Source: Escherichia coli O127:H6 str. E2348/69 | Lineage (GTDB): Bacteria; Pseudomonadota; Gammaproteobacteria; Enterobacterales; Enterobacteriaceae | Assembly: GCF_000026545.1 (NCBI RefSeq) | Contig: NC_011601.1 | Length of the DNA: 64,000 nt | Reading direction: 5' to 3' (one strand) | Shown: one piece after another, positions 6,001 through 9,000 of the stretch | How positions within the stretch are numbered: position 1 is the stretch's first letter | Layout of the letters: every line of letters starts with the position of its first letter | Made by a program: the position numbers

Positions 6001-9000
6001 TATGGCACAGTAACTCACGAGCGCTGGCCATCCGTTGTTGGTTTACCCACGCATTAAACCCGATTCCATGGTATTTCTTAAATAACTTACTGAAATAATA
6101 AGGGCTTAGATAAACGTGCGAGGCAACATCTTCCAGACGCAAATCGTCTGATAAATGCGCATCAATATAACGTAAAGCTTTTTTCATTTTATTGTCGTGG
6201 GGACCAGGCGCACGAGTCTGGCGCACCGAATCTGACTGAGATTTGTTCTCTTTAATAACCACAAAATTGAGTTGTTTTTTTAGGCAATTTTCTACAATCA
6301 ACTTCAACAAATCAGCAGAGGCCATAACTCTTGAGTAATCCATCTCAGGGACTTTGCGAAATTCATTAAGTAATTCGGGATCTGCCTGCCAGCAATCATC
6401 GACATTCAGAATATCGACCAAATCGACATCATCATTACGCAGACGAACTTGCCCGCACAATACAAAACCAACTAAATGTCCGGCGATTACCAGTGGAATA
6501 GAGAAATCGGTTATTAATCCGGCATGACAGCGATAAATACAAGGCTGATCGGATTTAGAGGCTTCCAGACCCCCACAACGATCGCTCATGCGACATCGAG
6601 TGCTCAGCTGAGGGTGTTGCCGCATCATCTGACAAAATGGAGTGAAGTTAAACAGCTCGGAAATTTCATCGCCGTGAATATTGACCACGACAACCGCAAG
6701 GCTGGTCGCCTGCGCAAAATCCTGCGCGATTTTATTAATGAGTTCTGAATTAAGTGTCGCCGCAGAAATCATGATAAAACCTCCCAGTTAATTTATTGTT
6801 ATAGCAAAACAATTGTTTTACATTTAATCTTCACATCATCCTTGATGATTTACTGACGAGAAGCACAAAGGACAATAACAAAAGCCTCCGTGAAGCGGGA
6901 GACTTTTTAATAAGTTCGGAAAGCAGATCACAAACAGTAAAAAAATAAACGTTTATAACTGCCAGATTATTTCGTTATTCACTGATTTCTTTAGGCGTTA
7001 CACTATTGACAGGTAAATTCTTTGCAATGAGATAGCGATAAATCGCCGCACCAACACATGCCCCAATGATCGGTGCAATAATGGGTACAATGAAATAAGG
7101 AATATTGCGTCCACCAGTCATCGCAATTTCCCCCCAACCCGCAAGCCAGGTGAAAATTTTAGGTCCAAAATCACGCGCTGGATTCATGGCAAAACCGGTC
7201 AATGGTCCGGTAGAAGCACCAATAACAGCAACCAGAATACCAATGAGTAAAGGCGCAAGCGGTCCTTTGGGTACGCCATTACCGTCATCGGTCAACGCCA
7301 TAATCAACCCCATTAACATGGACGTTATGACCACTTCGACCAACGCTGCTTGCCATACATTAATCGCCGCTGCTGGATAAGTACTGAAGATACTGGCGAG
7401 TTGTAAACTTTCTGCGCTACCACGCACTATATTGTGAGCAGATTCAAAATCGGTAAACAAACTGCTGTAGAGAGAATATGCCAGAGCCGCACCACCAAAG
7501 GCACCCGCTAATTGCGCCACACAAAATGGCAGCACTTTACGGGCTGGGAAAGAGGCAAACAGCCACAGAGCAATGGTAACTGCCGGGTTGAGATGAGCGC
7601 CGGAAATACCTGCCGTAAGGTAAACAGCAAGCGAAATCCCTAACCCCCAAATGATACAAATTTCCCACAGTCCCAGACTTGCCCCGGCAACTTTCAGGGC
7701 GCACAAACAACCAATGCCAAAAAAGAGGAACAGTCCGGTGCCCAAAAACTCGGCAACGCATTGCGCCTTGAGTGAATCATTCATAGTGACACCTTCTTTA
7801 CGGAGTTTTTCTTTATCAGCCAACTATGCGCTGATTGTTGTGTATACCGAGCGCAACTATAAAAAATTGCTCTGCAGAAAATATTGCCAACATGCATGAC
7901 AGACTCGTGTAAAAATCGTGCTAACATAACAAATTATTGTCATTGCCGAATCATGCAACACAGCGTTAATCAGTGTTGAAAGTAATAATTCCCACCAAAC
8001 TTTTACAGTAAAAAATTGCCATCATGACATAATAAAATTGAAACAAATATCACAGTTCCTTCCTCGAACCAAACTCAACGAAATATTACTCGCGATTAAA
8101 CTCACTAGACAACGCAATTAATTCACATTGAAATATCCACAAAATAACCAATAAATTAATAACATATAGTTCATAAAAGCAATTTTATTATATTTGTTCT
8201 CTATTAATTTTTCTCATTAGCCGATTAAGTCAGCCATTCTTTTTCCTCGTTTTTTTTTATAGTCATATCGTCAAAAAAATCCAGGCGAGGTCTTTATGCA
8301 ACAAGAAGCGTTAGGAATGGTAGAAACCAAAGGCTTAACTGCCGCCATAGAGGCCGCAGACGCCATGGTGAAGTCGGCAAATGTTTTGCTGGTCGGCTAC
8401 GAAAAAATAGGTTCCGGGCTGGTGACCGTCATCGTTCGTGGTGATGTCGGGGCGGTAAAAGCGGCAACAGACGCGGGTGCCGCAGCTGCGCGTAACGTCG
8501 GCGAAGTAAAAGCCGTACACGTTATTCCCCGCCCACATACCGATGTCGAAAAAATCTTACCAAAGGGAATTAACCCATGAGCAGCAATGAACTGGTCGAA
8601 CAGATCATGGCGCAGGTCATCGCTCGCGTAGCGACGCCAGAGCATGAGGTTCTCCCGAAAACCACTCATCAAATACGAGAGACGGCTATGGCAGAAAAAA
8701 GCTGCACGTTAACAGAATTTGTTGGCACCGCTATTGGCGACACTGTAGGTCTGGTCATTGCGAACGTTGATAGCGCCCTGTTGGACGCGATGAAACTTGA
8801 AAAACGCTATCGTTCCATTGGCATTCTGGGGGCGCGTATTGGCGCAGGGCCACACATTATGGCCGCTGATGAAGCGGTAAAAGCCACCAACACTGAAGTT
8901 ATTAGCATTGAACTTCCTCGCGATACTAAAGGCGGTGCCGGACACGGCTCATTGATCCTCTTAGGTGGCAACGATGTTTCCGACGTGAAACGCGGTATTG

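Follow-up and report, generated by a model that had tools for sequence, protein, structure and literature searches.

A likely pair of divergent PocR-dependent promoters in the AT-rich pduF-pduA gap of Escherichia coli O127:H6 E2348/69

Adherent-invasive and other gut-adapted E. coli show an enrichment of pdu genes (PMC9220930), whose regulation in this species has so far been assumed from Salmonella. The gap between pduF and pduA in strain E2348/69 raises the question of which elements could direct transcription away from it on both sides, and how these compare with the Salmonella region. In the window, the whole 64-kb stretch of DNA that was analysed, open reading frame calls placed the gap at 7785-8295, exactly 511 bp bounded by two start codons, the minus-strand pduF ATG at 7784-7782 and the plus-strand pduA ATG at 8296; over the gap the window matched the chromosome of E2348/69 (EPEC O127:H6) at 100% identity, and the RefSeq annotation of that strain concurred with these boundaries. 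In the RefSeq gene order, the minus strand bore cobT, cobS and cobU, then a hypothetical gene, the cobalamin riboswitch, pocR and finally pduF; beyond the gap, the plus strand bore pduA, pduB and pduC. Pfam domains identified PduF as a MIP protein, PduA as a BMC protein, and PocR as a combination of a PocR sensory domain and an AraC HTH domain. The gap was therefore placed between divergently transcribed pduF(-pocR) and pduA, the arrangement by which a Salmonella-type region is recognised.

The first-pass annotation had described the gap as long and markedly AT-rich, and its base composition bore this out. GC content was 32.5%, compared with 48.1% for the 64-kb window, and dropped to 20-28% at 8135-8284. 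Only 7% of 511-bp segments were equally GC-poor, all others lying beyond 41 kb; larger low-GC stretches were found downstream of the pdu operon at 41.8-56 kb, falling to 24% GC near 46.4 kb. Homopolymer A/T runs of at least 5 numbered 8, against 2.9 expected from composition (P=0.0045), and W-runs of at least 8 numbered 13, against 7.0 expected (P=0.0025). The gap also exhibited a weak 11-bp AA/TT dinucleotide periodicity (P=0.003, uncorrected for five periods). Examples of the homopolymers were as follows:

8250-8258, T9 run, a homopolymer example
8273-8279, A7 run, a further homopolymer example

Orthologues were sought with the PocR protein as the query, scanning one genome per species, and the divergent pduA/pduF arrangement was recovered at about 60 loci. 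The gap measured 509-531 bp in Escherichia, Salmonella, Citrobacter, Klebsiella, Pluralibacter, Phytobacter and Kosakonia, and 565-809 bp in a further set that included Yersinia, Hafnia, Brenneria and Tolumonas. In an alignment of 42 gap sequences, five of them from Escherichia, the E2348/69 gap was 82-92% identical to those of other Escherichia lineages, 46-59% identical to those of other genera, and approximately 55% identical overall to those of S. enterica subsp. arizonae and diarizonae, the two subspecies that represented Salmonella among the retrieved loci in place of S. Typhimurium. This low mean identity was interrupted by invariant islands across arizonae, diarizonae and the 40 other taxa aligned, and conserved blocks, including the core blocks, could be aligned with both subspecies, Citrobacter, Klebsiella and others. 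Among nine Escherichia alleles, 18.6% of positions were variable within the elements predicted below, compared with 38.7% in the remainder (Fisher P=5e-7). Synteny in about 60 species, together with these aligned blocks, supported the equivalence proposed earlier: the E. coli gap is orthologous, in position and in sequence, to the Salmonella pduF-pduA region, and is hence a pdu/pocR control region of a known kind that is uncharacterised in E. coli.

Several individual sequences stood apart in this survey. A contig binned as Citrobacter sp. (MAG HRGM_Genome_0066) carried a gap 99.6% identical to that of E2348/69, and a 383-bp contig in a Streptomyces assembly encoded PocR at 98% identity; both look like E. 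coli contamination or misbinning. In E. coli WB61, just the final 106 bp of the gap (query positions 406-511) was left beside pduA, with IS1 and IS3 transposase fragments upstream of the remnant and a truncated pduB, indicating that the locus is decaying in this strain. The pduA leader of S. Typhimurium SL1344, CTTATAGTCCCAACTATCGGAACACTCC (primer T7P pduA For, PMC10433801), was identical to Klebsiella sequences and unlike the arizonae and diarizonae leaders, a hint that the locus has been exchanged horizontally among genera.

A position-weight scan over the 42-sequence alignment yielded only two -10-like hexamers that were kept in every sequence, one per strand, and the two -10 regions with their T-tracts formed a perfect 11-nt inverted repeat (I5), TTTTTTATAGT. 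The pduF-proximal -10 was also found in Yersinia, Hafnia and Brenneria. Inspection of the sequence revealed no usable -35 at either Ppdu or the pduF-proximal promoter; upstream of the -10, CAGCCA was present at 21 bp on the Ppdu side and TTGCCA at 23 bp on the pduF side, with GCCA common to both. The promoter elements were as follows:

8258-8263, plus strand, -10 hexamer TATAGT of Ppdu, its column conserved in 100% of the 42 sequences
7861 to 7856, minus strand, pduF-proximal -10 hexamer TATAGT (element 7856-7866 with its T-tract), conserved in 100% of the 42 sequences
8227-8263, plus strand, Ppdu core, in which near-invariant AAGTCAGCCATTCTTTTTCCTCG (8227-8249) is followed by a T-run and then by the -10 TATAGT
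7878-7894, no strand assigned, conserved block AAAATATTGCCAACATG containing TTGCCA, presumed activator/RNA polymerase contact

The AAGTCAGCCATTCTTTTTCCTCG stretch was the most strongly conserved of the gap, and 2 of the 38 core positions varied within Escherichia. The AAAATATTGCCAACATG block belonged to D1, a 17-nt motif present in three direct copies, and had 1 of 17 positions variable within Escherichia; its TTGCCA, at 23 bp, is too distant from the -10 to serve as a -35, and we therefore presume that it contacts an activator or RNA polymerase. A simple sigma-70 scan of the gap returned 1 site against 4.1 expected and was thus uninformative.

Nominal start sites were set at the seventh base past each -10 hexamer, leaving six bases between, a placement that would give a leader of about 26 nt for pduA and one of about 65 nt for pduF:

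7785-7849, minus strand, predicted pduF 5' leader of ~65 nt, with a nominal start near 7849 taken from the conserved -10
8270-8295, plus strand, predicted pduA leader of ~26 nt, with a nominal start near 8270

The pduF Shine-Dalgarno sequence, AAGGTG, lay directly upstream of the ATG at 7784, with GTGACACCTT invariant in 21-42 species, and that of pduA, GCGAGG, lay at 8285-8290, with GCGAGGTCTTT invariant across the aligned sequences. A Salmonella pduA RNA used experimentally began at -44 from the ATG (PMC10433801), so the true pduA start could be further upstream than 8270.

PocR binds the Pcob promoter at two boxes, 20 and 48 bp long and 52 bp apart, box II being 9 bp from the -35 (PMC11264322), and that article credits their footprinting to Rondon and Escalante-Semerena (1996). 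We located Pcob in Salmonella by means of the primer sequences and box dimensions given there, and its box positions are thus reconstructed rather than read from a footprint. Each reconstructed box held a 16-bp palindrome, TAGCAATATTTTGCTA and TAACAATAAATTGTCA, and these probably fall within the footprinted PocR boxes I and II. From them came the pattern TRRCAA-N4-TTGYYA, with 12 specified positions over 16 bp, and the candidate boxes of the gap were as follows:

7927-7942, no strand assigned, box A, TAACAAATTATTGTCA, a perfect palindrome whose centre lies at -85.5 relative to the nominal pduF-proximal start
8006-8021, no strand assigned, box B, CAGTAAAAAATTGCCA, 10/12 positions, whose centre lies at -164.5 relative to the nominal pduF-proximal start
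8111-8126, no strand assigned, box C, ACGCAATTAATTCACA, 8/12 positions, centred at -151.5 from the nominal Ppdu start
8177-8192, no strand assigned, half box AAGCAATTTTATTATA, whose centre lies at -85.5 relative to the nominal Ppdu start

Box A was the sole zero-mismatch match to the pattern in the 64-kb window. It was kept at the aligned position in 100% of other genera, and in about 45 species, Yersinia, Hafnia and Brenneria among them, it lay at -84.5/-85.5. It was identical at 16 of 20 positions to Pcob box I of S. diarizonae and is presumed to be a PocR site. Box B, a member of the D1 direct repeat family, was kept at two or fewer mismatches in 89% of other genera, and its location corresponds to that of Pcob box I at -159.5. 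Box C, in which 1 of 16 positions was variable within Escherichia, aligned with perfect boxes at -149.5 in Kosakonia and Phytobacter. Most genera had TRGCAATTTTATATYA at -84.5 of Ppdu with a degenerate right half; the half box of E2348/69 was an inverted copy of the box B flank (I1/I2), and it lay inside the "potential box II" of Ppdu, which is PocR-responsive according to PMC11264322. In E. coli, boxes B and C and the -85 box of Ppdu were all degenerate.

Measured from nominal starts, the palindromes lay at -83.5 and -159.5 at Pcob (25-30 species), at -84.5/-85.5 and -162.5/-164.5 at the pduF-proximal promoter (about 45 species), and at -84.5 and -149.5 at Ppdu. At the sequence level, the boxes of the gap matched those of Pcob in both motif and position, so that the three PocR-regulon promoters, Pcob, Ppdu and the pduF-proximal one, have one design in common. 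The candidate Ppdu boxes have been reported to give PocR-dependent roadblock repression (PMC11264322), and MBP-PocR has been reported to bind the Salmonella pduA upstream region in EMSA (PMC10433801).

Because other genera have the same layout at Pcob, PocR-driven divergent transcription was the best reading of the gap, and we consider it likely that the gap comprises two back-to-back PocR-dependent promoters and an AT-rich spacer, driving pdu and pduF-pocR. Ppdu would face pduA and a promoter of like design would face pduF-pocR, each having TATAGT behind a T-tract, no functional -35, a motif containing GCCA 21-23 bp ahead of the -10, and 16-bp palindromes approximately 85 and 150-165 bp upstream of the nominal start. 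When 1,2-propanediol is present, PocR, an AraC-family activator whose gene lies downstream of pduF, would bind the boxes and recruit RNA polymerase to both weak cores, inducing the pdu operon and potentially establishing positive feedback on pduF-pocR. The AT-rich spacer, with its A/T-tracts, could make the DNA more bendable and give nucleoid proteins or global regulators a platform. The general picture of pdu control is unchanged by these findings; the map supplies coordinates for the promoter cores, the candidate PocR boxes and the Escherichia differences from which reporter and footprinting experiments can be designed.

Downstream, the output of the pdu operon in E2348/69 may be impaired by a nonsense codon in pduC (9408-11009). 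A premature in-frame stop at 11007-11009 ends the frame as ...GYRL*, after which GERWEEIKNIPGALDPNEID* follows in frame, and RefSeq labels the E2348/69 gene a pseudogene. In five other E. coli strains pduC has all 554 codons, so the E2348/69 product, the large subunit of diol dehydratase, is truncated by 21 residues.

A further reading, which we regard as doubtful, holds that the Escherichia gap has been rewired through loss of a central element and of Pcob, and that a hairpin in the pduF leader acts as a cis-acting RNA element. The features concerned were as follows:

8060-8112, minus strand, Escherichia-specific centre, 13 bp shorter and without the ATTCCATATTTACATTTTTG...GTGACA element
7814-7835, minus strand, pduF leader stem-loop with a 6-bp stem (7830-7835 paired with 7814-7819), from the RNAalifold consensus

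The ATTCCATATTTACATTTTTG...GTGACA element was common to all other genera on the pduF-sense strand and was promoter-like, with a good -35; this central site was kept on the pduF strand in 69-81% of aligned sequences and was absent in Escherichia. E. coli had a promoter-like sequence of its own, TTGTCT-18-TAATAT (8112 to 8083, minus strand), of which 15 of 30 positions were variable within Escherichia, making it a weak, low-confidence promoter candidate. Pcob, its boxes and the cbi genes were all absent from Escherichia, where the cobalamin riboswitch came nearly directly after pocR. The lost element could equal a PocR-independent, globally controlled pduF promoter, and if the gap were rewired in this way, basal pocR expression and global control would be wired otherwise than in Salmonella.

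The arms of the leader hairpin were paired in 138 of 138 cells across 23 sequences, around a loop of about 10 nt (roughly 9-12) that varied in sequence and length. One pair changed from C-G to U-A in 5 sequences belonging to two separate clades, and G-U/U-G pairs were permitted on the pduF-sense strand only. The variable loop length and the strand-specific G-U pairs provide modest evidence for an RNA structure over a protein-binding palindrome, which was disfavoured on the same grounds. A terminator was rejected since no U-tract followed the hairpin on either strand. The single-sequence fold was not unusually stable (z=-0.76). A GGA (CsrA-type) motif was present in the loop in Citrobacter and Klebsiella, and not in that of E. 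coli, Salmonella arizonae or Kosakonia. Were the hairpin cis-acting, it would set the stability or the translation of the pduF-pocR mRNA.

Crp, ArcA and IHF inputs to pdu/pocR control are known from the Salmonella literature. The Fis and Cpx studies deal with pocR itself and not with the pduF-pduA gap. The first-pass annotation had suggested that a region of this kind integrates PocR, CRP, ArcA and IHF control, and we scored CRP, IHF and ArcA with consensus patterns rather than curated matrices. CRP matches in the gap were at or below chance, and the best of them was weak:

8039-8054, no strand assigned, weak CRP-like site TGAAACAAATATCACA, 8/10, the best CRP match of the gap

Only the right half of this site, ATCACA (8049-8054), was invariant; the site was kept at three or fewer mismatches in 84% of genera and at two or fewer in 11%. 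IHF core matches in the gap, three with one mismatch, were at chance level. The gap held more ArcA-like direct repeats than chance would give (6, with 1.5 expected; P=0.005), and apart from the match at box A none was conserved outside Escherichia. Of the suggested integration, a PocR-type architecture was clearly recognisable; the consensus matches did not confirm CRP, IHF or ArcA inputs, those for CRP and IHF being at chance and the ArcA-like repeats enriched but lineage-specific. Beyond the gap, an ArcA-type direct repeat with a single mismatch, AGTTAATTTATTGTTA (6786-6801, plus strand), was observed just upstream of the pocR start at 6772, and it fits the ArcA pattern better than every site within the gap.

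Box A was the only conserved IHF core match, with one mismatch to WATCAANNNNTTR, so it might in principle be an IHF site; it also fits the ArcA pattern TGTTA-N6-TGTTA with two mismatches, and which protein binds it is thus ambiguous from sequence alone. These fits and the ArcA-like enrichment would favour an explanation in which the palindromic boxes are IHF or ArcA sites and PocR acts at the promoter-proximal invariant blocks only, as would a 1997 finding, reportedly by Rondon and Escalante-Semerena, that IHF is needed for propanediol-dependent cob/pdu transcription in Salmonella. We consider this explanation unlikely, however, as the same palindromes lie, by reconstruction, within both PocR-protected regions of Pcob and occur at matching distances in three PocR-regulated promoters. 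IHF consensus matches were not enriched, IHF sites are asymmetric whereas the boxes are symmetric, and the remaining ArcA-like matches were not conserved outside Escherichia.

It is quite improbable that the AT-richness is passive, the gap being a horizontally acquired, H-NS-coated spacer with a minimal promoter beside each gene and no specific function for most of its 511 bp. Conservation between genera is poor over more than half of the gap, its centre is rearranged in Escherichia, and the locus is limited to 640 of 5426 complete E. coli genomes, all of which would suit such a spacer. However, its length is constant at 509-531 bp across Enterobacteriaceae, the conserved boxes lie at fixed distances of 85-165 bp from either core, polymorphism is halved within the predicted elements, and matches to the H-NS high-affinity motif in the gap were at chance level. 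A small gene or known regulatory RNA concealed in the gap is extremely improbable. A 48-codon ORF (7927 to 7781, minus strand) does end by overlapping the pduF start codon at ATGA, but this frame is disrupted or missing in the other Escherichia lineages and in the other genera, and no Rfam family matched inside 7785-8295 at E<=1.

The Rfam matches near the gap both lay outside it. A strong cobalamin riboswitch (5589-5763, minus strand, 109 bits) lay about 90 bp past the pocR stop and was followed by a hypothetical ORF of 145 aa (4933-5370, minus strand), for which no Pfam match was found, and then by cobU, cobS and cobT. A full-length match to the enterobacterial sRNA STnc230 (6833-6916, plus strand, 76 bits) sat between pocR and pduF on the opposite strand, overlapping a bidirectional terminator-like hairpin at 6880-6907; a literature search on STnc230 found nothing.

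The preferred reading, two divergent PocR-dependent promoters, can be compared with known systems. The closest is the Salmonella region itself (Ppdu, P1 and P2, for which Chen et al. 1994 and 1995 are cited), which has the same flanking genes and the same divergent layout. The E. coli gap of 511 bp compares with 524 bp in S. enterica subsp. arizonae and diarizonae, and both TATAGT -10s, the Ppdu core block, box A, box B, ATCACA and both ribosome-binding sites are common to E. coli and Salmonella. At approximately 55% identity, Escherichia differs in having neither the 13 bp nor the TTTACA...GTGACA central element, in a leader hairpin pair that is U-A rather than the C-G of Salmonella, and in having no Pcob or cbi genes for PocR to co-regulate.

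The promoters of the gap also resemble Pcob of Salmonella, Citrobacter and Klebsiella, which has a TA(T/C)AGT-type -10, no good -35, GCCA/ACCA 21 bp upstream, and TRRCAA-N4-TTGYYA boxes at about -84 and -160. In contrast to the gap, where two such promoters would stand back to back, Pcob is unidirectional and has a long leader that contains a riboswitch, and its boxes are less degenerate than those of Ppdu. More broadly, the gap shares with AraC/XylS-family promoters (araBAD, Pm, mar/sox) a weak core, an adjacent activator gene and repeated upstream sites of 16-20 bp, as well as the need for an activator to recruit RNA polymerase, which PocR was reported to do in PMC11264322. AraC/XylS sites, however, are direct repeats abutting the -35, whereas those of the gap are symmetric palindromes at -85 and -160, and the PocR site pattern has been described as unusual for the family (PMC11264322). 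An architecture common to all three promoters of the PocR regulon could help to define the poorly understood PocR operator.
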